Positions 1 through 28,789 of a stretch of DNA of 32,000 nucleotides are shown here, in pieces (the first letter of the stretch is position 1; each line of letters starts with the position of its first letter). The notes beneath the pieces were generated by a model. That model did no database searches, was not told the DNA's origin, and saw nothing but the letters and a program-made list of their open reading frames with translations. Origin of the DNA: Halorhodospira halophila SL1 (GTDB lineage: Bacteria; Pseudomonadota; Gammaproteobacteria; Nitrococcales; Halorhodospiraceae). Made by a program: the position numbers and the translations under genes. The stretch spans positions 1,440,001 to 1,472,000 of the forward strand of contig NC_008789.1 of NCBI RefSeq assembly GCF_000015585.1, given 5' to 3'.

Positions 1-996
1 GAACGCCATGGAGTGGAAGTCATCCACGATCGCGCCGAGGAGTTGGACCTGGCCGGGAAGCGGGTCCTCCCTCGCAACCACGATCCCATTCGCTACGATC
101 GTCTGGTGGTGGCCCCCGGGATCGACTTCGACTGGGAACGAATCGAGGGCATCGACCAGGACGATACCGAACAGATCCCGCACGCCTGGGAGGGCGGGCG
201 ACCCTTCCGGATCCTGCGGGAACAGATCAAGGCCATGGACGACGGCGGCACCGTCATTGTCTGCCCGCCAGAGGACCCCTTCCGCTGCCCGCCGGGGCCC
301 TACGAGCGCATGGCACTGATCGCCCATTACCTCAAGTCCCACAAGCCGCGCGCCAAGGTCCTGGGGCTCGACCCGAAAGACAGCTTCTCGAAGCAGAGTC
401 TGTTCAAGCAGGGCTGGGAGGAGCTCTACGGCGATATGATCGAGTGGGTCCCCGGCTCCGAGGGCGGCGCCCCGGAGCGGCTTTCGGTGTCGGATCGCAA
501 GGTCTTCACCGACGGGGGTGCCCAGGCACACCGGGGTGACGTCATCAACTTCATCCCGCCGCAGAGAGCCGGCGCGATCGCCTGGAAGGCCGATCTGGTG
601 GATGACAGTGGCTGGTGCCCGGTGGATCAGGAGACCTTCAGGTCCCAAAAGCACGACGACGTCTACGTGATCGGCGACGCGGCCATCGCCGGGGCCATGC
701 CCAAGTCGGCCCACAGCGCCAACAATCAGGGCAAACTGGTCGCCGCCACCATCGTCGGCGAACTCACCGGCGAACCAACTCCCGATTTCCCCACGGTCAA
801 CACCTGCTACAGCCTGGTCTCGCCGGAGTGGGCCTTCACCATCGCGGCGGTGTTCGAACACCGGGACGGCGAGATCCGGGAGGTTGAGGGTTCCGGTGGG
901 CTCAGCCCGGAAGACGAGGACCAGGACTTCCGACAGATCGAGGCCATCTACGCCCCTGGGTGGTACGAGTCGATCACCAAGGACATGTTCGGATAG
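1..996 (+). CDS. fccB: Flavocytochrome c sulfide dehydrogenase flavoprotein subunit (FccB), 3' portion; the 5' end is off-window
   Basis: Frame 1 is open from base 1 (ERHGVEVIHD...), so the tracked GTG at 13 is internal. The C-terminal half matches the FCSD flavin-binding domain as I recall it from Allochromatium FccB: WCPVD, VIGDAAI..MPKSAHSANNQGK, NTCYSLV, and the terminal GWYESITKDMFG. TAG stop at 994-996. Confidence 0.88.
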   Translation, partial: ERHGVEVIHDRAEELDLAGKRVLPRNHDPIRYDRLVVAPGIDFDWERIEGIDQDDTEQIPHAWEGGRPFRILREQIKAMDDGGTVIVCPPEDPFRCPPGPYERMALIAHYLKSHKPRAKVLGLDPKDSFSKQSLFKQGWEELYGDMIEWVPGSEGGAPERLSVSDRKVFTDGGAQAHRGDVINFIPPQRAGAIAWKADLVDDSGWCPVDQETFRSQKHDDVYVIGDAAIAGAMPKSAHSANNQGKLVAATIVGELTGEPTPDFPTVNTCYSLVSPEWAFTIAAVFEHRDGEIREVEGSGGLSPEDEDQDFRQIEAIYAPGWYESITKDMFG

Positions 997-1059
997 CGGA
1001 TTGGTGCCCGGCCACGCTAGAGTGGCCCGCAACCACACGCGGAAAGGACTCATTCAGCG

Positions 1060-3150
1060 ATGTTGCGCCTGCTCAAGTGGCTCCTGCTGATCCTCCTCGC
1101 CCTGATCGTGACCCTGGGCGTCGCCATCGCCGTGGTGGCTACGGTGATCGACCCCAACGACTACCGCGACGACCTGGCCGAACTCGCCGAGCGCGAGTTG
1201 GGCCGGGAGCTCGAGATCGAGGGCGAGATCGAGTGGTCGTTCTTCCCCTGGCTGGGTATCGAGATCGGACGCGTCACCCTGGCCGACGCCGAGGGCTACT
1301 ACGACGAGCCGTTTGTCGAAATCGACCGGCTGTCGGCGGCGGTACAGGTCTGGCCCCTACTGCGCGGCGAGCTGCATACCCGCGCCGTCGAGCTCGAGCG
1401 CCCGATCGTACGCCTGATGCGCGACGAGGATGGCCGGGACAACTGGGCGGACCTGGCCGAACGGTTCGCCGCCGCTGAGGACGAGCACGAAGACGACACC
1501 GCGGCGCAGGAATCCGCGGACTCCGAAAGCCCGGCGCAGGACAGCCCTGCCGATCTCGAGGCCCTCGGCGGGATCGTGATTGGCGGACTGCGGCTGCATG
1601 AAGGAGCCGTCTACTGGGAGGACCGCAGCGAAGACCGGCAGATCCAGCTGGACCCGCTGAACCTGGAGGTGGACACTCTGCGCCTGGACGAGCCGGTGGG
1701 CGTGCGCGCCGACGTGCTCGTCGGCGACGAAGAGCGCGTGGCTTTCTCCGGCGAGGCCCGCCTGAGTCAGACCGACGCCGGCCCGGAGATAGCAGCCAGC
1801 TGGACTCTGGATCCCCTCGACCCCAAGGGCCTGCTCCAGGCCCTCGGTGAGGAGCCGCCCGAGACCACGGACCCCGAGGTCATGCGCAGCCTCAGCGGCT
1901 CCGGAACCATCGATGCCACGGCGGAGCGCATCGACGTCACGCGCCTCATCCTCGACCTCGACGACAGCCGCGTCGAGGCTCAGGCGGCCATCGAGCCTGA
2001 GCAGCCAACCATCGAGTTCGCCGCACAGCTCGATCGGATCGACCTCGACGGCTATCTGCCGCCGGAGGCCGCCGAGGGAGAAGCCAATGGCAATGGCAAC
2101 GGCGAAACGGCCACTGCGAACGATAACGGCGGACCGGAGGGCCTCGGCGACCTGCGCGAGGTGGCGCTGGACTTTCCCCTGGAGCCGCTGCGGCCACTGA
2201 TCCTGGATGGCCGAGTTGGCATCGGCGAGCTCCGCGCCGCCGACCTGACAGTCACCGACTTCGAAGCCCTGCTGAGCGGTGCTGATGGGGAGCTCGGCGC
2301 CGAGTCCCTGCAAGCGCACCTCTACGAGGGCGAGCTGGCCGGTCATGCGTGGCTCGACGCCCGCGATGACGACCCCGCCTTCGATGTGGCCGCCTCGCTG
2401 GAGGGTGTGGCGTTCGCCCCGCTGCTCGAGGATCTGCTGGGCCGCGACTGGCTCCACGGCACGGGTCAGTTCCACTTCGAGGGCAGCGGCGGTGGCCCCC
2501 ACCTCCACGGGCTGATCGAGGATTTCGACGGCTCGGGGCACATCGCCGCCGAAGACGGCAATCTGCTCGGCCTCAACATTCCCCACAAGATCCGCGAGGC
2601 CGCGGCGCAACTGCGCCGGGAGGATTCCCCCGAGCCGCCCGGCGATGCGGAACGGACGGACTTCTCCGACCTGACCGCCAGCTTCACCCTCGAGGATGGC
2701 GTCGCCCGCAACGACGACCTGCTGCTCGAGTCCCCCCTGCTCGATGCCACCGGGGAGGGCTCGGCGGACATCCTCGCCGAGGAGATCGACTACCGGGTGC
2801 GGGCGACGTTCCCCGATGGGTTGTCGGAAGATGATGCGCCGCTCCTGTATCACCTTGCCGGAGCCACGGTACCGCTGGAGATCTCCGGCTTCCTGTTCGA
2901 CCCGGACATCCGACTCGACCTCGCCGCTGCACTGGGTGAAGAGCGCCTGGAACGCCTCGGCGCGGCTCGCGAAGAGTTTGACGAGCGTGTGGACGAGGAG
3001 CGCGAGCGCCTGGAACAGAAGGCTCAGCAGGAACGGGAGCGCCTCGAACAGGAGGCCAAGCAGGAACGGGAGCGGCTCGAACGAGAGGCTCAAGAGCAGC
3101 GGGACGACGCTGAACGGCGCCTCCGCGAGGAGCTGGAGAGTTTCTTCTAG
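1060..3150 (+). CDS. asmA: AsmA-family outer-membrane biogenesis protein
   Basis: ATG at 1060 with GGAAAGGA upstream. N-terminal membrane anchor MLRLLKWLLLILLALIVTLGVAIAVVA is followed by DPNDYRDDL...LEIEGEIEWSFFPWLGIEIGRVTL, the typical AsmA N-terminal signature. The long acidic beta-rich body and the DAxGEGSADIL..EIDYRV C-terminal AsmA_2-like segment also fit. High GC3 coding pattern. Confidence 0.85.
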   Translation: MLRLLKWLLLILLALIVTLGVAIAVVATVIDPNDYRDDLAELAERELGRELEIEGEIEWSFFPWLGIEIGRVTLADAEGYYDEPFVEIDRLSAAVQVWPLLRGELHTRAVELERPIVRLMRDEDGRDNWADLAERFAAAEDEHEDDTAAQESADSESPAQDSPADLEALGGIVIGGLRLHEGAVYWEDRSEDRQIQLDPLNLEVDTLRLDEPVGVRADVLVGDEERVAFSGEARLSQTDAGPEIAASWTLDPLDPKGLLQALGEEPPETTDPEVMRSLSGSGTIDATAERIDVTRLILDLDDSRVEAQAAIEPEQPTIEFAAQLDRIDLDGYLPPEAAEGEANGNGNGETATANDNGGPEGLGDLREVALDFPLEPLRPLILDGRVGIGELRAADLTVTDFEALLSGADGELGAESLQAHLYEGELAGHAWLDARDDDPAFDVAASLEGVAFAPLLEDLLGRDWLHGTGQFHFEGSGGGPHLHGLIEDFDGSGHIAAEDGNLLGLNIPHKIREAAAQLRREDSPEPPGDAERTDFSDLTASFTLEDGVARNDDLLLESPLLDATGEGSADILAEEIDYRVRATFPDGLSEDDAPLLYHLAGATVPLEISGFLFDPDIRLDLAAALGEERLERLGAAREEFDERVDEERERLEQKAQQERERLEQEAKQERERLEREAQEQRDDAERRLREELESFF
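2998..3096 (+). repeat. Three tandem 33-nt (11-codon) repeats encoding a charged coiled-coil tail of AsmA
   Basis: Units lie at 2998-3030, 3031-3063 and 3064-3096. They encode ERERLEQKAQQ / ERERLEQEAKQ / ERERLEREAQE and are in frame within the asmA ORF. Confidence 0.8.
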
Positions 3151-3164
3151 CAGGGAGCAGCTGC

Positions 3165-3557
3165 ATGGGCACACTCATCTTCGGCCGCCAGGACCTGGAA
3201 AATCGGCTCGCCGCGATGACCCCGGAGGAGATCGACGACCTCCCCTTCGGGGTCATCCAGATCGACCAGCACGGGCGCATCCTGCTCTACAACGCCACGG
3301 AGGGTGCGATCACCGGTCGTGATCCAGAGGCGATGATCGGCCGGGACTTCTTCAACGACGTCGCACCGTGCGGGCACACGGAGGCCTTTTACGGCCGGTT
3401 CCAGGAGGGTGTCCGGCACGGTGACCTCAACGAGATCTTCGACTACACCTTCGATTACCGCATGGCGCCGACGAAGGTGCGGGTGCACATGAAGCGGGCG
3501 CTCAGCGGAGATACCTACTGGATCTTCGTCAAACGGATCAGCGCCCCGGCAGCCTGA
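3165..3557 (+). CDS. pyp: Photoactive yellow protein (PYP) homologue, stand-alone, 130 aa
   Basis: ATG at 3165 with GGGAG 7 nt upstream, 14 nt after the asmA stop. It aligns end to end with Halorhodospira halophila PYP as I recall it: FG.IQ.D..G.IL.YN..EG.ITGRDP...IG..FF.DVAPC....FYG.F.EGV..G.L...F.YTFDY.M.PTKV.VHMK.ALSGD.YW.FVKR. By my count Tyr42, Glu46, Thr50, Arg52 and Cys69 (TGC 3369-3371) keep identical numbering. Confidence 0.9.
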   Translation: MGTLIFGRQDLENRLAAMTPEEIDDLPFGVIQIDQHGRILLYNATEGAITGRDPEAMIGRDFFNDVAPCGHTEAFYGRFQEGVRHGDLNEIFDYTFDYRMAPTKVRVHMKRALSGDTYWIFVKRISAPAA

Positions 3558-3604
3558 TGGCGGCGGCTACCACGGCCTTTTGCTGCTCGGCGCAGCACTG
3601 GGCG

Positions 3605-3634
3605 TGGCACATAGCAGGCGGGCTCGGGGATAAT
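3605..3634 (+). promoter_or_regulatory. Weak candidate promoter ahead of the acidic ORF
   Basis: GATAAT -10-like hexamer at 3629-3634 in one of the few AT-richer patches. A weak sigma54-like GG-N10-GC (GTGGCACATAGCAGGCG, GG 3606-3607, GC 3618-3619) overlaps it, but its -12 element is poor. Sequence inspection only. Confidence 0.25.
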
Positions 3635-3684
3635 AGGGGCTCGCCTAAGCCGATCGGGCGCACGCCCAAGCCAGAGGGAGCCGC

Positions 3685-3930
3685 ATGAGCGAAGAGACCC
3701 CCAGACTCAACACCGACCTTGCCAGACAGGTGCAGGCCCTCGGCCTCGAAGCCGTCGATCACCAGGACGACGAACCGATGGCCACGGTGGAGGCGCTGAT
3801 GCTCGGGACCCTGTCGTTCGCGCGGAACTACATGAGCGGCGCGGACCTGGCCGACTACCTCCGCTTTGTCGCCGAGCACGTCGAGCGAGCCGACGACGAA
3901 GCCGGAGATGATTGGGACGACGAGGCGTAA
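3685..3930 (+). CDS. Small highly acidic hypothetical protein (81 aa)
   Basis: ATG at 3685 preceded by AGAGGGAG. Strong G/C preference at third codon positions, unlike the overlapping Arg/Gly/Pro-rich antisense ORFs. The C-terminus ERADDEAGDDWDDEA is extremely acidic. I recognise no family. Confidence 0.6.
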   Translation: MSEETPRLNTDLARQVQALGLEAVDHQDDEPMATVEALMLGTLSFARNYMSGADLADYLRFVAEHVERADDEAGDDWDDEA

Positions 3931-3935
3931 CCACG

Positions 3936-3964
3936 CCGGCCCCGGGGACAGCACCCGGGGCCGG
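3936..3964. terminator. Perfect 11-bp GC hairpin between convergent genes (possible bidirectional terminator or RNA stabiliser)
   Basis: CCGGCCCCGGG (3936-3946), loop GACAGCA (3947-3953), CCCGGGGCCGG (3954-3964). It sits between the acidic ORF stop (3928-3930) and the minus-strand lipoprotein stop (3973-3975). There is no U-tract on either strand. Confidence 0.45.
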
Positions 3965-3972
3965 ATGCCGGA

Positions 3973-4458
3973 CTATTCGCTGGCCATGCGCTCGAGGGCA
4001 TCGAGCGCCTGTTGATCCCCCCCGACAAAAAACCGCACCTCGCCGTCCGTATCGCGGTAGAAGACGGTGGGGACGCTGCGCACGCCCAAATCCTGAGCGA
4101 GCTGCATGTTGGCCTGGACGGCATCGTAGCCATCGATGTCTTTCTCGTCCTCGATCATCGCCGCCGCATCCGCCTGGGCGCCCGAACCGAGGAAACCGAC
4201 CGGCACCCACCGCCACTCCACACTCGGCGTGGCGCCGTTCTCCACGGCATTCTTGAGGTTGGTACACGCCGGGCAGTGCGGGTCCTTGACAGCGTAGACC
4301 CGGAAGTCACTCTCCCCGTGAGTGATGTAGTGACTATCGGCCAGCTGATCGAAGACGTCCGCCTTCGCGGACTCCCCCGGCGTGCCGTCGGAACAGCCGA
4401 CCATCAACAGCGCACCGCCCAGCAGGCCCAGGATCCCCTGACGCATCGCTCGACTCAT
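3973..4458 (-). CDS. Thioredoxin-fold thiol:disulfide interchange lipoprotein (DsbC/DsbG C-terminal-domain-like)
   Basis: Lipoprotein signal MSRAMRQGILGLLGGALLMVGC with a lipobox; CxxC motif CPAC; C-terminal GVRSVPTVFYRD.DGE...GG typical of the DsbC/G thioredoxin domain. GAGGGAG lies upstream of the ATG at 4458. Confidence 0.8.
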   Translation of the reverse strand: MSRAMRQGILGLLGGALLMVGCSDGTPGESAKADVFDQLADSHYITHGESDFRVYAVKDPHCPACTNLKNAVENGATPSVEWRWVPVGFLGSGAQADAAAMIEDEKDIDGYDAVQANMQLAQDLGVRSVPTVFYRDTDGEVRFFVGGDQQALDALERMASE

Positions 4459-4540
4459 TGATCGCTCACTCCCTCATCCGCGGTGTCTATCAAACGGCTG
4501 GCCACGCCGCGTCATGGGCAGCCCACTCCTGGCACCTAGT

Positions 4541-4924
4541 TCAGTGCTCCACCCCGGGCAACACAGCGTTGAGCAATTGCCCGGCACGCTCATGACCCGC
4601 CTCCGCTGCGCGTTCCCAAAGCTCGGCGGTGCGCTCCATATCCGGATCCATGGTATGGCCCTCCAGATACATCCAGCCTAGCTGAACCTTGGCCTCGGCA
4701 TCCCCCTGATCGGCCAGATCTTGAAAGGCGTCATAGGCGGCGTCCAGATCGCCCTCCTCATGGAGTTCAAAGGCCTTGTTGAGGGCTTGATCGGCCTCGC
4801 TCAGCTCCTCGTCCTCGTCGGAGACCTCTGCCGACTCCTCGCCGAAAGCCCCTCCGGACCATCCGGCCACCCCGAGGACCAGGACAGCGGCCAGGCAGAA
4901 GCGTTGGTTGCGTTTCAGCTGCAT
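4541..4924 (-). CDS. Secreted Sel1/TPR-like repeat protein (127 aa)
   Basis: The tracked 240-aa ORF has an implausible Arg/Pro/Ser-rich N-terminus. The internal ATG at 4924 gives MQLKRNQRFCLAAVLVLGVAGWSGGAFG (signal peptide). An acidic linker and the Sel1-like GDAEAKVQLGWMYLEGHTMD...A..W..AAEAGH follow. Confidence 0.75.
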   Translation of the reverse strand: MQLKRNQRFCLAAVLVLGVAGWSGGAFGEESAEVSDEDEELSEADQALNKAFELHEEGDLDAAYDAFQDLADQGDAEAKVQLGWMYLEGHTMDPDMERTAELWERAAEAGHERAGQLLNAVLPGVEH

Positions 4925-5093
4925 GGGTCTTCTCCGGAGATCATCTGGAAAGCCGCAGCGTAACGCAGGATCGACTCGCTGTCGCACCGCGACGATGCGA
5001 TCGGCACCAAGAAGGGGCGCGCGCGTTATCATAGACGATTTGTATGACACCCTACGCACGTTCCAAAGTCGGCATGGAGGCAAGACGGCGAAC

Positions 5094-5474
5094 ATGCTTG
5101 AGATCCCGCCACGGCAGATCCTCCAGGCCCTGGGCGAGGGCGTGATCGGTGTTGATTGCCAGGGGCTACTGACCTTTCTCAATCCGGCCGCGCTGCGGCT
5201 GTTCGGGTTCCCCGACGAGGCCAGTGTCATCGGCGAGTCGGCCCACGCCCTGACCCACCACACGCACCCCGATGGCCGTCCTTACCCGGAACAGGACTGC
5301 CCCATCTACCAGGTCCTCGAGACCGGCGAGCCCCTGGAAGCGTGGCAGGACCACGTCTGGCGCAGCGACGGCAGCGGTTTCCCCGTCCAGGTCTACGCCA
5401 ACCCACTGCGGGATGACCAGGGCGCGCTCACCGGTGCTGCAGCGGGGCCTGCGCCTCAACTGGCAGCTGGATGA
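5094..5474 (+). CDS. PAS-domain-only ORF (N-terminal remnant or part of a hybrid sensor kinase)
   Basis: ATG at 5094 gives MLEIPPRQILQALGEGVIGVDCQGLLTFLNPAALRLFG...HHTHPDGRPYPEQDCPIYQVLETGEP...WRSDGSGFPVQVYANPLRDDQGALTG, a complete PAS fold. The frame then runs into non-homologous AAAGPAPQLAAG and a TGA at 5472-5474. Confidence 0.6.
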   Translation: MLEIPPRQILQALGEGVIGVDCQGLLTFLNPAALRLFGFPDEASVIGESAHALTHHTHPDGRPYPEQDCPIYQVLETGEPLEAWQDHVWRSDGSGFPVQVYANPLRDDQGALTGAAAGPAPQLAAG

Positions 5475-6294
5475 ACGCCTGCCCGAGCATGTGTACGCCG
5501 ACCCCACCCGTCTCGGACAGATCCTCGCCAATCTCGTCGGCAACGCCATCAAGTTCACAGAGCACGGATCCGTCGACGTTCACATCACGCCCCAGCACGA
5601 TCAGCGCATCTCCTTCCGGGTGGCCGACACCGGCCCGGGGATCCCTGAATCCATCCGCGCCACCATCTTCGAACCGTTCGCCCGCGGCGATCAGGGGGTG
5701 CCGCAAACCCCGGGGACCGGGCTTGGCCTGGCGATCTGCCGGGAACTCGTCGGACTCATGGGGGGTCGGATCGACGTAGAGAGCGCCGAAGGCCGCGGGA
5801 CGACCTTCAGCTTCACGGTCGAACTGCCCGCATGTGACGCCATCGTGCCAGCGGCGGTCGACACGGATCGCCCCCGGACACCGAGCCGCCCGGGAGCGCA
5901 CCACGATACGCCGCAGGCCATCCTCGCTGAGGACGAGCCAACCAACGCCCTGCTGCTCAGCACGTTGCTTGAGCGCGCGGGGTGGGCCGTAACCACCGTG
6001 ACCGACGGCGCCGAGGCCGTCGAGGCCTGGCAAGAGGCGCAACCGGAGCTGATGATCCTGGACATGCAGATGCCTCACACCAACGGCGATCAGGCGGCAG
6101 CACGAATCCGCAGCCTGGAGCAGCAGCACCGGGTACCGCGCACGCCCATCGTCATGCTCACCGCCCACGCCCTGGACGATGTCCGCGAGCGCGCGCGGCA
6201 GGCCGGCTGTGACCACTACCTGACCAAGCCGGTGGCACCGGAGGATCTGTATTCGGTACTGGACTGGGCCCAGGGCGGCGACGGGTCGCCATGA
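5434..6294 (+). CDS. HATPase_c + receiver (REC) protein with no DHp/HisKA domain (C-terminal part of a hybrid kinase; possibly a pseudogene fragment)
   Basis: Frame 1 from the GTG at 5434 reads VLQRGLRLNWQLDERLPEHVYADPTRLGQILANLVGNAIKFT (N box). G1 DTGPGI, F FEPF and G2 GTGLGLAI follow, then a REC domain (ILAEDEP, ILDMQMP, MLTAH, LTKP). The upstream part of the tracked ORF (5272-5433) is nonsense overlapping the PAS frame. The stop overlaps the next gene's ATG (ATGA at 6291-6294). Confidence 0.6.
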   Translation: MLQRGLRLNWQLDERLPEHVYADPTRLGQILANLVGNAIKFTEHGSVDVHITPQHDQRISFRVADTGPGIPESIRATIFEPFARGDQGVPQTPGTGLGLAICRELVGLMGGRIDVESAEGRGTTFSFTVELPACDAIVPAAVDTDRPRTPSRPGAHHDTPQAILAEDEPTNALLLSTLLERAGWAVTTVTDGAEAVEAWQEAQPELMILDMQMPHTNGDQAAARIRSLEQQHRVPRTPIVMLTAHALDDVRERARQAGCDHYLTKPVAPEDLYSVLDWAQGGDGSP

Positions 6295-24084: not shown

Positions 24085-24290
24085 CCCCCAGGCCGGTCTC
24101 CGGGCTTGCGAGCGGGGCCCCAGCCCCAAGCGCCGCGCCTTCCCGCACCGGGTGCCGGGGACACCGTGGATGCAGTGGCGATGCAGCGCCCGCACTCGCC
24201 TACCGTTGCGGGGACAGCGCCGGACTTGCCTGCGCCCGCGCAGGGCACAGTGCGCACCGACTTCCCGACCGTCCGCGGTGGCGCCGCACG
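24085..24290 (-). promoter_or_regulatory. Cobalamin (B12) riboswitch
   Basis: Read on the minus strand: GGTCGGGAAGTCGGTGCGCA (24251-24270), TCCCCGCAACGGTAGG (24199-24214), GCCACTG (24173-24179) and GGGAAGGCG (about 24135-24144). The B12 box AAGCCCGGAGACCGGCC (24091-24107) matches the consensus AGYCMGGAGACCKGCC. It lies in the 5' leader of the uptake/cbi gene string, about 127 nt before the ATG at 23963. Confidence 0.88.
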
Positions 24291-24383: not shown

Positions 24384-24498
24384 CGCGGCGGGGCGACGAG
24401 GTCAATAGCCACGGACCGCCCCCTTGTGGCAGGATTCCCAAGTGCGCGTTAAGGGTATGGACGCCCGCGACCCCTCCCGACCCCCCGCCGGAGATGTC

Positions 24499-25674
24499 AT
24501 GGGCAAAGAGGCACACCTTCCGTCCTTCTGTGGCGATGCCACCGAAACCGGGGCACTCGATGTCCTGCCGCTCAGCGACCAGGAGCCGCACCTACGGCTC
24601 AGCGAACGCTTCGAACGACTGCGCGCCCATATCAACCAGGCGCTGCCCCACGGTGCGGTCCACCGCATCGCCGTGGCCATTTACGAGCCGGACGCCGATC
24701 GGCTCAAGACCTACGGCGCCGGCGGCGATGCACCCAGCCCGTTGGATCGTTACGAGACCAACCTGGCCGATACCCCCACCCTGCGTGCCCTCGCCGAGGC
24801 ACCGGGCGTACGGATCATCGACGATTACCAGGACCACCCCAGCCCCCGCCGCCATACCGCCAGCATCCGCGAGAGCGGTCTACGTTCCGGGATGATCCTG
24901 CCGCTGCACCACGAGCAGACCTTCGTCGGCTTCCTGTTCCTCAACTCCCGCCAGCCCGGCTATTTCCAGGGCCCGATCGTCAAGCAGCTAGCGCCGTACA
25001 TCGACCTGGGTCGCCTGCTGGCAATCACCTCCATCCGCACTACGCAGACCCTCCGGGGTGCGGCACGCACGGCCATGGCTTTCGGGCGCGCGCGGGACGA
25101 CGAGACCGGGGGACACCTGTCACGAATGGCGGAGTACAGCCGCCTCATCGCCCTGGAACTGGCCCAGACCCACCCCCTCAGCGACGAATACATCGAGATG
25201 GTCTACCAGTTCGCGCCGGTCCACGACGTGGGCAAGATCGCCGTCCCGGACGGCATCCTCCTTAAGCCGGGGCGACTCGCCGAGGAGGAGTTCGCGCAGA
25301 TGCGCGAACACGTCAGCCGCGGCGTGGCCATGGTGCTGGCCATGACCGAGGAGCTGGGCCTCAGCGAGGACCGACGCGCGGCCATCATGCGTAATATCGT
25401 CGCCTACCACCACGAGCGCCTGGACGGCAGCGGTTACCCGACCGGTGCGCGCGGCGACCAGATCCCTCTGGAGGGGCGCATCGTCGCCGTAGCCGACGTC
25501 TTCGACGCCCTGACCAGCGAACGCCCCTACAAGCGCCCCTGGGGGTTTACCGAGGCCGCCGACACCCTGCACGCCGAAGCGGCGGCCGGGAAGCTGTGCG
25601 CCGAGTGCGTGGCGGCCTTTCTGCGCCGAAGCGTCGAGATCGAAGCGATCCGCGGCCGTCACGGGGTCCGCTGA
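24499..25674 (+). CDS. HD-GYP domain c-di-GMP phosphodiesterase with an N-terminal GAF-like sensor domain
   Basis: HD-GYP hallmarks are intact: GGHLSRMAEYS, PVHDVGKIAVPD, EHV..G, YHHERLDGSGYPTG and VADVFDALTSERPYKRPW. The start is uncertain. I prefer ATG 24499 (GGAGA 4 nt upstream); alternatives are ATG 24457 and TTG 24424. Confidence 0.85.
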   Translation: MGKEAHLPSFCGDATETGALDVLPLSDQEPHLRLSERFERLRAHINQALPHGAVHRIAVAIYEPDADRLKTYGAGGDAPSPLDRYETNLADTPTLRALAEAPGVRIIDDYQDHPSPRRHTASIRESGLRSGMILPLHHEQTFVGFLFLNSRQPGYFQGPIVKQLAPYIDLGRLLAITSIRTTQTLRGAARTAMAFGRARDDETGGHLSRMAEYSRLIALELAQTHPLSDEYIEMVYQFAPVHDVGKIAVPDGILLKPGRLAEEEFAQMREHVSRGVAMVLAMTEELGLSEDRRAAIMRNIVAYHHERLDGSGYPTGARGDQIPLEGRIVAVADVFDALTSERPYKRPWGFTEAADTLHAEAAAGKLCAECVAAFLRRSVEIEAIRGRHGVR

Positions 25675-25675
25675 G

Positions 25676-26239
25676 CTAGCTGCGCGCCTCGACGCGGCCG
25701 CAGTAGGCCTGCGGGATCCGGTAGACGTAGACCGGGGCGTCCAACCGCACCGGGGGCTGGTAGATCGCGCTGGGCCGCCAACCGGGTATGCGGAAGGTGT
25801 TGCTGACCACCAGCGCACCGGGCGGCAACTCCGCCCGCCATCGCGGCTCCAGCTCGCGGATGGCCTCCAGGTGCAGGTAACAGACCACCGCGGCGGCATC
25901 GCTGCAGGAGACGCGGCGCAGATCGCGGCGCCTGAATTCGACGTTGGGCACCGGCCACAGCCACTGCAGCACGCAGGCGAAGAGCCACGGCAGGGGCGAG
26001 AGCTCGTAGCCAATGACCCTGGCCCGCGGGCACCTGCGCCCGACGCTGCGGGCCAGGCCACCCCACCCCGAACCGGCCTCGACCACCGTGCCCTCCAGCT
26101 CCGCCGGCAGCGCCGCCCGAACCAGCTCATGACCCAAGCGACTGGAGGGCAGCGGCGAGATGCCGGTGACCATCGTATAGCCGACGATCAGCAGCATCCC
26201 CCCCAGCGTAACGACGAAGATCAACGCTTCCAGGAACAC
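25676..26239 (-). CDS. Small membrane-anchored class I SAM-dependent methyltransferase (187 aa)
   Basis: GTG at 26239 with GGAGG 4 nt upstream. N-terminal TM helix FLEALIFVVTLGGMLLIVGY; motif I VVEAGSGWGGL; a later acidic/aromatic strand pattern (VIGYELSP, VVCYL). Its stop is 1 nt from the convergent HD-GYP stop. Confidence 0.7.
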   Translation of the reverse strand: MFLEALIFVVTLGGMLLIVGYTMVTGISPLPSSRLGHELVRAALPAELEGTVVEAGSGWGGLARSVGRRCPRARVIGYELSPLPWLFACVLQWLWPVPNVEFRRRDLRRVSCSDAAAVVCYLHLEAIRELEPRWRAELPPGALVVSNTFRIPGWRPSAIYQPPVRLDAPVYVYRIPQAYCGRVEARS

Positions 26240-26349
26240 TGCACCTCCACGCAGCCTCGGACGACTCGGCGAGTATCACCCCTTGAACGCCGGAGTATAC
26301 CCGCGTATTCCTTGATAGAATGCCTCGACACGGTAGCGAGTCAGAGACC

Positions 26350-27519
26350 ATGAATCAGCGGGCCATCCCCACCAAGCGCGCCACCGTGCAGCCGAACGAC
26401 CTGGTGGTCGGTAAGCCCGTCCCCTATGATATTGAGGACGCCTACGGCCATCTGCTGTTGCGGCGCGGATCGATCCTGCGCTCCCGAGAGCAGCTGGAGC
26501 GGCTGCTGCAGATCGGCCGGACCCCCTACCACGTCGCTGCCGGACGCGAGGACACCGGCGGGATCTCGAGGCGTCGCGAGCTGGCCCTGGCCGCCTTCCG
26601 CAACCCCTTCGACCTGATCTATCAGATCTCCCGAGCGCTGCAAGAGACCTTCAAATGGGTCGGCGAGGACAACGAGCGCTTCCTCCGCCGCCTCGACCAC
26701 CTGGCCAGCCGCATCGGCGACCTGGTCGAGCGCGACGCCGATGCCGCCATCGGTGCCGCTCACCTCGATGAGGCGTTTGCCTACTCCATCCGCCACCCGA
26801 TCCGCCAGGCGGTCCTCTGCGACGTCGTCGGCAGCCAGCTGGGCATCCCGGACAGCGAGCGACGCTCCATCGTCCTCGCTGCCCTGTCGGCGAACATCGG
26901 CATGCTCGAGACCCAGGATCGCCTGGCCCAGCAGACTACGCCGCTCGACGCCAACCAGCGCAGGGATCTGGAAGAGCATCCGATACGTTCGGTCGAACGC
27001 CTCTCCGCCGCCGGGGTCGAGGATACAACCTGGATCCAGGTCGTCGCCCAACACCACGAACGCCTCGACGGCAGCGGCTACCCCAACGGCCTGCGCAAAG
27101 ATCAAATCTGCCGGGGAGCGCGACTGCTCTCCCTCGCCGACACCTACCTGGCGATGATCAGCAACCGTGTCTACCGACCCGCCACCGCGGTCCGGGAAGC
27201 CCTGCTGGAACTGATGGATCAGAGTGGAGAGATCTACGACCGGGATATCCTCTCGGGGCTGATCCAGACCATCGGCATCTACCCGGCCGGCAGTTTTGTC
27301 GCCTTGGACAGCGGCGAACGCGGGGTCGTCATCCACCGCGGCCATCGCGGGGCCAATCCGGTGGTGGCGGTCCTGATCAAGGCCAACGGCCAGCCCACGG
27401 CGCGCCCCCTTTACCGGGACACCAGCCAGACGGACATGCCCAGCGTCGCCTCTCTGGAGCCCACGCACCAGCTGACGCAGCGCTTCCAGCTCGCCTCGCT
27501 GTGGGGCTACGATTCCTAG
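26350..27519 (+). CDS. HD-GYP-family protein with a degenerate HD dyad and a DUF3391-like N-terminus (likely non-catalytic)
   Basis: QHHERLDGSGYPNGL and LADTYLAMISNRVYRPA are conserved. At the position of the LHDIGK motif the sequence reads LSANIGM (Ala-Asn at 26890-26895). The N-terminus VQPNDLVVGKPVPYDIEDAYGHLLLRRGSIL fits the DUF3391 pattern. I prefer ATG 26350 because a TAGAAT -10-like box (26316-26321) overlaps the alternative ATG at 26320. Confidence 0.8.
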   Translation: MNQRAIPTKRATVQPNDLVVGKPVPYDIEDAYGHLLLRRGSILRSREQLERLLQIGRTPYHVAAGREDTGGISRRRELALAAFRNPFDLIYQISRALQETFKWVGEDNERFLRRLDHLASRIGDLVERDADAAIGAAHLDEAFAYSIRHPIRQAVLCDVVGSQLGIPDSERRSIVLAALSANIGMLETQDRLAQQTTPLDANQRRDLEEHPIRSVERLSAAGVEDTTWIQVVAQHHERLDGSGYPNGLRKDQICRGARLLSLADTYLAMISNRVYRPATAVREALLELMDQSGEIYDRDILSGLIQTIGIYPAGSFVALDSGERGVVIHRGHRGANPVVAVLIKANGQPTARPLYRDTSQTDMPSVASLEPTHQLTQRFQLASLWGYDS

Positions 27520-27550
27520 GCTGCCCTGACGCTGCCGCGACGGAGACCGA

Positions 27551-28789
27551 ATGGCCGCCTTACAACGCCTGCTCAGTTCCGCCTGGCTGCTCCACCTGCT
27601 GGTGCTAGCCGCCCTGGCAGGCTGGATCCTCGTGCTCAACGCCCCGTTCCCGCGCCCCGCGGTCGCGCTGCTGGAGGCCCACCAGCTGGAGATTCTTGGC
27701 GTCGGGGGCGGCCTCGTGGCCGTGCTGGCGCTGCTCTACCGGCGCGCCAACCTGGCCCTCCAGGCGGCGGTCATCAGCCTGTCGATCGCTGGCCTGGGCG
27801 TAGCGCCCTCACCTGCCCACGGCGTCACAGCCGCTGCCATCCTCTTGCCGATCAATATCCTGATCCTGGCGCTACTCGACGAACGCGGTCTGCTAAGCCG
27901 GGATGGGCTGTGGCGCTGCGCGGCCCTGGTGCTGCAGGTCCTGCTGGTGCTGGGCCTTTTCCGCCACCAGCCGGCTTGGCTGGAGGCCCTGGCGGCGACG
28001 CATTTCCTGCCTGCGGCCGTCAGCAGCTGGAGCAGTCTACCCGACCAGGGCCTGCTGCTCGGCGTCCTGGCCGTTGCCGGCCTGCTCTCCTGGGCCCTGC
28101 TCCACCCCAACCCGCCCCATATCGGCGCCTTCAGCGCGCTGGTCACGGCAACCGTCGGCCTGGAGCTGAGCCTGATGCGCCACGGGAGCCTGGTGCTGCC
28201 TACCCTGCTGGCCGTCGTCGCCCTCCACCTGCTGCTCTTCGCCGTGTTGCAGGAGGCCCACCGCATGGCCTTCCGTGATGGGCTCACCGGCTTGCCCAAC
28301 CGGCGCGCTATGGACACCCTGACGCAGGGGCTGAGCGGCCGCTACACCATCGCCATGATGGACATCGACCACTTCAAGGCGTTTAACGATACCTACGGGC
28401 ACGAGATCGGCGACCAGGTGCTGCGCCGTGTAGCCTCAAATATCGGCCGTGTCGGCGCAGGCGGCCGGCCCTTCCGCTACGGCGGTGAGGAGTTCTCCGT
28501 GGTCTTTCCGGGCCGCAGCCCGGATGAGGCTGTCGGGGCACTGGAGGCCGTGCGCCAGGCGATCGCCGACACCCCGTTTCGCCTGCGCAGCGCCGACCGG
28601 CCGGCGGACGATAAGCGTGGCAGTCGCGAACGCTCGGGCCAGCGGGGTGAGCAGGAGACCCGGATTACCATCAGCATCGGCGTCGCCGAGCCCGAATCCA
28701 CCTCGGCGAGCGCCGACGACGTCGTCCAGGCCGCCGACCAGGCGCTTTACCGGGCCAAGAAGGGCGGACGCAACCGCCTGGCTCGGTAG
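27551..28789 (+). CDS. Diguanylate cyclase (GGDEF) with a polytopic (~7 TM) N-terminal domain
   Basis: GGAGA lies upstream of the ATG at 27551. About 240 aa of hydrophobic helices are followed by RDGLTGLPNRR, DIDHFKAFNDTYGHEIGDQVL, the active-site RYGGEEF (28481-28495) and ADQALYRAKKGGRNR. Confidence 0.9.
   Translation: MAALQRLLSSAWLLHLLVLAALAGWILVLNAPFPRPAVALLEAHQLEILGVGGGLVAVLALLYRRANLALQAAVISLSIAGLGVAPSPAHGVTAAAILLPINILILALLDERGLLSRDGLWRCAALVLQVLLVLGLFRHQPAWLEALAATHFLPAAVSSWSSLPDQGLLLGVLAVAGLLSWALLHPNPPHIGAFSALVTATVGLELSLMRHGSLVLPTLLAVVALHLLLFAVLQEAHRMAFRDGLTGLPNRRAMDTLTQGLSGRYTIAMMDIDHFKAFNDTYGHEIGDQVLRRVASNIGRVGAGGRPFRYGGEEFSVVFPGRSPDEAVGALEAVRQAIADTPFRLRSADRPADDKRGSRERSGQRGEQETRITISIGVAEPESTSASADDVVQAADQALYRAKKGGRNRLAR

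Follow-up and report, generated by a model that had tools for sequence, protein, structure and literature searches.

The 130-residue reading frame at positions 3165–3557 of the window, by which we mean the whole stretch of 32,000 nucleotides of Halorhodospira halophila SL1 analysed here (NC_008789.1, positions 1,440,001 to 1,472,000), is the known photoactive yellow protein gene pyp2 (Hhal_1333), and the order asmA-pyp2-orf81 in which it stands is old, limited to part of Halorhodospira and dispensable there. Since the gene, the chemistry of its protein and a predicted operon have all been published, finding the gene adds little in itself; the comparative synteny result is the new part. As a whole, we consider it highly probable that PYP2 is charged by enzymes encoded beside pyp1, stays in its signalling state for about a minute and is probably expressed by read-through from asmA. 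The argument rests on the following features, given in window coordinates.

1060..3150, forward strand: AsmA-family envelope protein gene, 696 aa (SL1 1441060..1443150), Pfam PF05170
3151..3164, forward strand: asmA-pyp2 spacer CAGGGAGCAGCTGC, 14 nt, with the putative Shine-Dalgarno sequence GGGAG 7 nt ahead of the ATG
3165..3557, forward strand: pyp2 (Hhal_1333), single-domain photoactive yellow protein, 130 aa, identical to UniProt A1WWN8
3626..3634, forward strand: conserved GGGGATAAT motif within the 127-nt pyp2-orf81 spacer, 50 nt ahead of the orf81 ATG
3685..3930, forward strand: orf81, small acidic hypothetical protein, 81 aa, pI 4.05, 127 nt past pyp2
3938..3962, no strand assigned: GC-rich hairpin GGCCCCGGG-N7-CCCGGGGCC within the 42 nt that separate the convergent orf81 and dsbG-like genes
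3973..4458, reverse strand: DsbG-like periplasmic thioredoxin-fold protein, 161 aa, convergent with orf81
4541..4918, reverse strand: Sel1-repeat protein, about 125 aa from the internal start MKRNQRF..., Pfam Sel1 1.2e-05

According to the ORF listing, the reading frame opens at the first start codon past the upstream in-frame stop, and an exact-sequence look-up returned its product, over all 130 residues, as ABM62100.1, WP_011814122.1 and UniRef100_A1WWN8, encoded on a contig of 2,678,452 bp. The WP_011814122.1 sequence is also present in Data Set S3 of a recent survey of the family (PMC12826048, J Bacteriol 2025), and the published Hhal coordinates (1441060..1443150, 1443165..1443557 and 1443685..1443930) equal those of the window plus 1,440,000, one to one; it is the same gene. 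The first-pass annotation had presented it as an unrecognised orphan, which it is not: as cited in PMC12826048, PYP2 was first reported in 2005. Judged by profile and alignment, the product is a true PYP and not an ordinary PAS domain, as that annotation had proposed. TIGR02373, the equivalog model of NCBIfam for the photoactive yellow protein, matches it with 184.1 bits against a cut-off of 143.05, spanning profile positions 4–124 of 124, while generic PAS models reach merely 20–50 bits. The product aligns without gaps to the H. halophila PYP of the PDB (residues 4–125 in both, E 2.6e-50), with Tyr42, Glu46, Thr50 and Arg52 in identical numbering, and counting along the translation places the thioester site at D65-V66-A67-P68-C69 (DVAPC), with the V-A-P-C motif present; the collinearity and the five pocket residues named at the outset were thus correct. 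All nine residues of the published p-coumaric acid (pCA) pocket (Ile31, Tyr42, Glu46, Phe62, Val66, Ala67, Pro68, Cys69 and Phe96; PMC12826048) occur in the pyp2 product. Across a 17-sequence alignment, I31, E46, F62, A67, P68, C69 and F96 are invariant and Y42 is nearly so, and V66 is present in PYP2. H. halophila PYP1 (P16113; PDB 1NWZ and others) has the fold, the length register and the pocket (Y42, E46, T50, R52, C69, M100) in common with PYP2. The two proteins share 75 of 125 residues (60%) and differ at 50, with no gaps over residues 1–125, our own count agreeing with the published figures; PYP2 departs from PYP1 by T70G, D71H and P73E beside Cys69 and by a five-residue C-terminal extension, SAPAA.

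For pCA binding, spectrum and kinetics we rely on the literature, where the expectation of a functional blue-light receptor has already been borne out by chromophore binding and photocycle (440–442 nm, pB 52–77 s). A1WWN8 is entered as 'Hhal PYP2' with a λmax of 440 nm and a pB lifetime of 55 s (PMC12826048, Table 1); a re-measurement gave 442 nm and 52 s (bioRxiv 10.64898/2026.08.04.742864), and the latter work cites an earlier pB lifetime of 77 s. Compared with PYP1, PYP2 absorbs maximally at a wavelength shorter by about 5 nm and recovers about 100 times more slowly (bioRxiv 10.64898/2026.08.04.742864), the pB state being roughly 100-fold longer-lived, from which the authors propose slower responses (PMC12826048; bioRxiv 10.64898/2026.08.04.742864). 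Such a lifetime suits PYP2 to slow, integrating light responses and not to phototaxis. The point bears on the reading of PYP2 as a second phototaxis receptor, acting through MCP/Che proteins encoded elsewhere in the manner of the sensory rhodopsin I/II pair, for which there is precedent both in the negative phototaxis mediated by PYP1 in H. halophila and in known PYP-MCP fusions (PMC12826048). However, a pB state of about 1 min, 100 times slower than that of PYP1, is a poor match to taxis, and the ORFs scanned in the window include no che or mcp genes; we regard this role as very improbable.

A Pfam scan of 36 ORF translations, each 81 aa or longer and drawn from across the 32-kb window, gave no match to AMP-binding (pCL) or Lyase_aromatic (TAL/HAL), in agreement with what the first reading of the sequence had claimed. 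The other genes recognised there comprise a cluster for the biosynthesis and transport of cobalamin and genes for two histidine kinases, an NtrC-type activator, an HI0933-like flavoprotein, a helicase, CysG, two HD_5 proteins, one GGDEF protein, one GATase, one Mrp/ParA protein and MoaE. The canonical pyp-pcl-tal arrangement, with pCL and/or TAL adjoining pyp, is not found at pyp2. Whereas PYP1 is encoded in a pyp-pcl-tal operon, the PYP2 gene lies behind asmA with neither pcl nor tal adjoining. The search for a second pyp and for pcl/tal elsewhere in the genome, which had been suggested as a check, leads to that operon: by the published annotation, from which we take these positions, SL1 pyp1 (Hhal_1818) is followed by a 4-coumarate-CoA ligase and an ammonia-lyase (1,992,079–1,995,296), and the pCL/TAL genes (1,992,514–1,995,296) are about 549 kb from pyp2. 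A pyp gene without adjoining pcl or tal is nothing unusual, and on this point the earlier emphasis was misplaced. Among 113 predicted pyp operons, pCL occurs in 32% and TAL in 5% (PMC12826048), and an independent survey found pCL in at least 30% and TAL in at least 10% of cases within five genes of pyp. The called genes around the PYP2-clade loci retrieved (L001–L006, L087–L091 and L095) likewise include no pCL or TAL at any of them. The simplest reading would be that the pyp1-linked pCL and TAL charge both PYPs; with p-coumaroyl-CoA supplied in trans, no chromophore genes would be needed beside pyp2.

The surroundings of pyp2 have been published in part. Data Set S2 of PMC12826048 lists for hha:Hhal_1333 a predicted operon of a cytochrome c553-like protein (106 aa), an FCSD flavoprotein (434 aa), an AsmA-family protein (696 aa), the PYP (130 aa) and a hypothetical protein (81 aa). 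The main text of that paper does not mention AsmA, and a full-text literature search for PYP and AsmA together returned author-name matches only and no paper discussing both. For the comparison of this neighbourhood across lineages, close synteny was taken from exact-protein look-ups. In a group of Halorhodospira strains and one soda-lake contig (L087–L090), PYP2 is 90% and AsmA 79% identical to the SL1 proteins, and the order is cytochrome c, FCSD, asmA, a 14-nt spacer, pyp2 and orf81, then the convergent dsbG-like and sel1 genes, and then genes for a hybrid histidine kinase, HK495 and NtrC. Four soda-lake metagenome contigs (L001–L004; PYP2 83%, AsmA 79%) have the same gene order and a 14-nt spacer. 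A more divergent Halorhodospira sp. MAG (L095; PYP 73%, AsmA 56–60%) carries asmA, a 75-nt spacer, pyp, orf85, dsbG and sel1, and the FCSD pair is absent upstream of its asmA. The arrangement asmA-pyp2-orf81 is thus kept in three H. halophila-group lineages, each with the 14-nt spacer, and in one divergent Halorhodospira MAG.

Based on this persistence, which in the H. halophila group spans a dS of about 0.8 and leaves the spacer at exactly 14 nt and which extends beyond that group in a lineage whose AsmA is just 56–60% identical, it seemed conceivable that PYP2 is wired to its neighbours, either because light controls an envelope module of the AsmA-family, DsbG-like and Sel1 proteins or because orf81 binds the pB state directly. 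Against this reading, the block asmA-orf81-dsbG-sel1 is intact without pyp in two related lineages. One of them (L092–L094; AsmA 57–58%, 74% GC) has asmA, a 172-nt spacer, orf80, dsbG and sel1, the other (L097–L099; AsmA 45%) a hybrid histidine kinase gene, asmA, a 160-nt spacer, orf83, dsbG, sel1, HK495 and NtrC, indicating that orf81 and AsmA do not need PYP2. Conversely, PYP2-clade genes occur in unrelated contexts: P0004 (L005/L006), which by eye from the alignment is about 92% identical to the L095 copy, stands with a phosphonate ABC transporter and SelO, and P0005 (L091) with a peptidase S8 and YjbQ. A control set of 80 other pyp loci among the matches listed, from many phyla, at no more than 64% identity, exclusive of H. 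halophila and with up to 10 kb on each side, yielded no AsmA or orf81 by tblastn (E ≤ 1e-3). The further point of topology is that proteins of the AsmA family have a periplasmic body. As the upstream protein is membrane-anchored and inspection of the sequence ends of PYP2 gave no signal peptide, direct contact between the two is topologically unlikely. The expectation of an informative conserved neighbourhood thus held in one part, in that the neighbourhood is real in part of Halorhodospira, and failed in the other, in that it is dispensable, as the pyp-less L092–L094 and L097–L099 loci show, and therefore a weaker pointer to a signalling partner. Overall, a functional link of PYP2 to these neighbours appears unlikely to us.

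The last 90 nt or so ahead of orf81, including GGGGATAAT, are alignable between pyp-containing and pyp-less lineages, so that pyp2 occupies a discrete slot extending from the asmA stop codon to the orf81 upstream region. A neighbour-joining tree of AsmA, built from this single protein in six taxa, places L097 outside and joins L095 and L092 as a pair that is sister to the SL1 group. Tentatively, we infer that pyp was gained once in the slot and afterwards lost by the L092 lineage, or that an equivalent course of events took place; the order of gain and loss is tentative because it rests on this six-taxon, single-protein tree, with which the short DsbG and orf81 trees disagree. Recent horizontal acquisition was considered as well and ruled out, since the GC3 of pyp2 (0.86) equals that of the neighbouring genes. 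Within the H. halophila group, at a dS of about 0.6–0.85 (about 0.7–0.8 for pyp2), dN/dS against orthologues is 0.08–0.13 for pyp2, 0.13–0.16 for orf81, 0.14–0.16 for asmA and 0.05–0.08 for the dsbG-like gene. These ratios mark pyp2 and orf81 as real genes under purifying selection.

The gene upstream of pyp2 matches PF05170 with 162.2 bits against a gathering score of 29.8 (3.1e-47, in two stretches), but reaches only 132 bits with the NCBIfam AsmA equivalog PRK10833, whose cut-off is 412; we accordingly call it an AsmA-family member only, and not an equivalog of E. coli AsmA. Its product begins with a hydrophobic N-terminal anchor, MLRLLKWLLLILLALIVTLGVAIAVVATVI, and its charged C-terminal tail is specified by a tandem repeat of a 33-nt unit at 2995–3104, in the 3′ part of asmA. 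The stop codon occupies 3148–3150, position 3151 being the first base of the spacer, and the claim that pyp2 sits tight behind asmA proved accurate, with 14 nt that include GGGAG as the gene's own probable Shine-Dalgarno sequence. The spacer is exactly 14 nt long throughout L001–L004 and L087–L090, its sequence having diverged save for a purine-rich GAGGG/GGGAG core. Such conservation of length and core is the pattern to be expected if the spacer holds a working ribosome-binding site and the two genes are tightly coupled. The 75-nt spacer of L095 indicates that tight coupling of asmA and pyp is not universal. Terminator scanning and folding gave no credible terminator in the asmA-pyp2 or the pyp2-orf81 spacer, the nearest terminator-like pattern (3121–3138) being a weak stem of 5 bp that still lies within asmA itself. 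On these grounds, asmA and pyp2 are likely to be co-transcribed. Alternatively, a promoter internal to the 3′ end of asmA could conceivably drive pyp2; a scan of positions 1–5400 for the sigma-70 consensus found no site against 0.4 expected, which says little at 69.5% GC.

Downstream of pyp2, the GGGGATAAT motif may be the −10 element of an orf81 promoter. Five of the six lineages, among them the pyp2-less L097, share its ATAAT core, and L092 has GGATCAC instead; as there is no good −35 nearby, a consensus promoter scan misses the motif. Two other readings of this spacer were rejected. As an RNA structure, the GGGGATAAT region folds with −0.46 kcal/mol in RNAalifold, and the 156-nt stretch around the spacer is no more stable than its shuffles (z = −1.0). 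A sigma-54 −24/−12 element, read by eye from TGGCAC-N-GC, fails in that the −12 GC is not conserved in L088 and L001. At the far end, the hairpin between the convergent genes folds with −37.8 kcal/mol (z = −3.1). It lacks a T-run and is for this reason not called by the terminator scan; it is likely to be a bidirectional end of both convergent transcription units.

The tiny acidic ORF announced behind pyp2 is indeed there (3685..3930, forward strand, 81 aa, pI 4.05). Its acidity is not distinctive, since AsmA (4.14), Sel1 (4.15) and DsbG (4.42) have comparable pI values. Pfam, NCBIfam and PHROGs gave no match to orf81. Among 5.8 billion proteins, five 90%-identity clusters match it, the named ones all from Halorhodospira, and a full HMMER scan of 1.84 billion representatives gave 6 hits, the only additions being three small proteins of distant similarity and two giant, repetitive ones. 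One of these small proteins lies within an element (L096) carrying integrase, Toprim, AAA_25, terminase and capsid genes. The alignment has a highly conserved core and a variable acidic tail, and the AF2 model, of modest confidence (pLDDT 67.5), has helices at residues 10–26, 31–49 and 52–76; the predicted structure is accordingly a bundle of three helices together with this tail. Foldseek gave no match of this model in the PDB (best E-value 2.6), and profile matches to PDB entries were to designed helical-repeat proteins only and were judged compositional. From its distribution among sequenced proteins, orf81 is best described as a conserved, near genus-restricted orphan. The DsbG-like gene that faces it (Pfam Thioredoxin_2, 1e-08; NCBIfam DsbG, 2.1e-13, under its cut-off) is syntenic in all six lineages, and orthologues of the Sel1 protein are 125–133 aa long.

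A direct role of orf81 as a PYP2 partner has some analogy in its favour. Rhodobacter capsulatus PYP, also a single-domain protein with a very long-lived signalling state, binds a small soluble protein, PBP (bioRxiv 10.1101/2021.06.01.446672), and orf81, which is cytosolic-looking and selectively maintained, is by this analogy a conceivable partner of PYP2. The two small proteins are nevertheless set apart by description, PBP being a 16-kDa dimer and orf81 an 81-residue protein that is also found without pyp. Because orf81 adjoins asmA in the pyp-less lineages, it belongs first of all with the envelope block, not with PYP2. In its more elaborate form, in which PYP2 would be a slow blue-light gauge tuning envelope or lipid homeostasis through the AsmA-family, DsbG-like and Sel1 proteins, possibly by light-dependent binding of orf81, we think the idea has only a small chance of being right. 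A related case is that of the Idiomarina loihiensis-type pyp loci with adjoining GGDEF/EAL genes, where the output of a stand-alone PYP has likewise been inferred from a neighbouring gene. There, however, a signalling enzyme of the cytosol is encoded next door, and the pairing is found again in different genera (29 operons), while at pyp2 the neighbour is an envelope protein and the pairing is limited to part of one genus.

The two-component genes at 5.1–9.1 kb of the window, encoding a hybrid PAS histidine kinase and HK495 with an NtrC-type sigma-54 activator, offer PYP2 another potential output. HisKA/HATPase genes are a recurrent feature both of predicted pyp operons and of PYP fusions (PMC12826048, Table 2), and the kinases lie 1.5–4 kb from pyp2 at every H. 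halophila-group locus. However, two convergent genes separate them from pyp2 and they stand outside its operon; the pyp-less L097–L099 likewise possess HK495 and the NtrC-type regulator. Moreover, the SL1 hybrid kinase is a deletion remnant, with about 500 residues including HisKA missing and a change of reading frame, and the hybrid kinase is also split in L087. That PYP2 feeds these systems is, in our judgement, very unlikely.

On the reading that we prefer, cytosolic PYP2 apoprotein is acylated at Cys69 by p-coumaroyl-CoA, which would be made in trans by the TAL and pCL encoded directly downstream of pyp1, some 549 kb off. Tyr42 and Glu46 hydrogen-bond the phenolate chromophore, and blue light isomerises it and leads to the pB signalling state, which in PYP2 lasts for about 1 min. 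Most likely, pyp2 is transcribed together with asmA, while its translation relies on a Shine-Dalgarno sequence of its own, with orf81 perhaps expressed from a promoter of its own and the unit ending at the GC hairpin that it has in common with the convergent dsbG-like gene. In evolutionary terms, pyp2 would be a passenger that entered the asmA-orf81 slot of the envelope block in an ancestor within Halorhodospira and subsequently disappeared from it in one lineage or more.

Anyone who looks for PYP partners among neighbouring genes should take the AsmA/orf81 surroundings of PYP2 as negative evidence and not over-read them, since they are found in one part of a genus and are absent both from two sister lineages that have retained the gene block and from other PYP2-clade loci. 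If coupling of PYP2 to the envelope or to orf81 were true, it would be the first identified output of stand-alone PYPs outside Rhodobacter.

A five-gene 'pyp operon' predicted in 2025 around the PYP2 gene Hhal_1333 (Data Set S2 of PMC12826048) includes the cytochrome c/FCSD pair that precedes asmA. This pair lies ahead of asmA only in the H. halophila group, while in the pyp-bearing Halorhodospira MAG locus L095 and in the related pyp-less locus L092 a divergent adh_short gene immediately precedes asmA, and the five-gene unit is therefore not conserved. The features surrounding pyp2 in SL1 are:

13-996 and upstream, plus strand: cytochrome c/FCSD flavoprotein pair
2995-3104, plus strand: 33-nt tandem repeat, about three copies, at the asmA 3' end
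3626-3634, plus strand: GGGGATAAT motif, 50 nt 5' of orf81
5094-6276, plus strand: remnant of a PAS/HisKA/HATPase/REC hybrid sensor kinase

The asmA repeat translates to ERERLEQ(K/E)A(Q/K)Q units within a highly charged C-terminal tail of this AsmA-family protein, whose length differs between Halorhodospira lineages (678-723 aa). Ahead of orf81, the gene for a small acidic protein of 81 aa, the GGGGATAAT motif may represent a -10 element. Its ATAAT core is kept in five of six lineages, including the pyp2-less L097, and L092 carries GGATCAC at this position; no convincing -35 element was found for it upstream of orf81, nor any conserved RNA structure in the motif region.

Comparison with related strains, in which the hybrid kinase measures 899-900 aa, identifies the SL1 gene as a deletion remnant: residues 1-117 correspond to positions 5094-5444 and residues 617-895, in a different frame, to 5440-6276, so that about 500 residues, HisKA among them, are missing. 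In the H. halophila-group locus L087 the kinase is likewise split, into 189 and 530 aa. The pyp-less lineage GCA_003552625.1 (L097:1634-5840, L099:584-4790) encodes a 698-aa PAS/HisKA/HATPase/REC hybrid kinase 40 nt 5' of asmA on the same strand, whereas the kinase of the H. halophila group is located downstream of sel1.

Two further features lie at a distance from pyp2:

24094-24267, minus strand: cobalamin riboswitch (Rfam RF00174; score 49.1 bits, gathering threshold 31.5)
24424-28789, plus strand: two successive HD_5 (HD-GYP-like) domain proteins, then a GGDEF protein

The riboswitch is situated 5' of periplasmic-binding-protein/FecCD/ABC transporter genes and a cbi gene cluster; both sets are encoded on the minus strand and together fill roughly 12.7-24 kb. 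The HD_5/HD_5/GGDEF genes, which lie about 21 kb away from pyp2 and have no link to it, constitute a signalling cluster of the c-di-GMP type.

The first ~55 residues of P0003, a 125-aa PYP from a 1308-bp ENA contig, are identical to those of P0001, a PYP2-type protein of Halorhodospira, whereas the rest of the sequence is similar to PYP1-type proteins (APCTD...) and lacks the SAPAA tail. P0003 is either a natural pyp2/pyp1 recombinant or a chimera created during metagenome assembly.

A distant orf81 relative, P0060 (66 aa, L096:6001-6201; E 6.6e-9 to the orf81 profile), is encoded between AAA_25/Toprim/integrase genes and terminase/capsid genes, surroundings that constitute a phage-like or satellite-like element. 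Because P0060 resides in such an element, its setting hints that the orf81 small-protein family may have originated from mobile elements.
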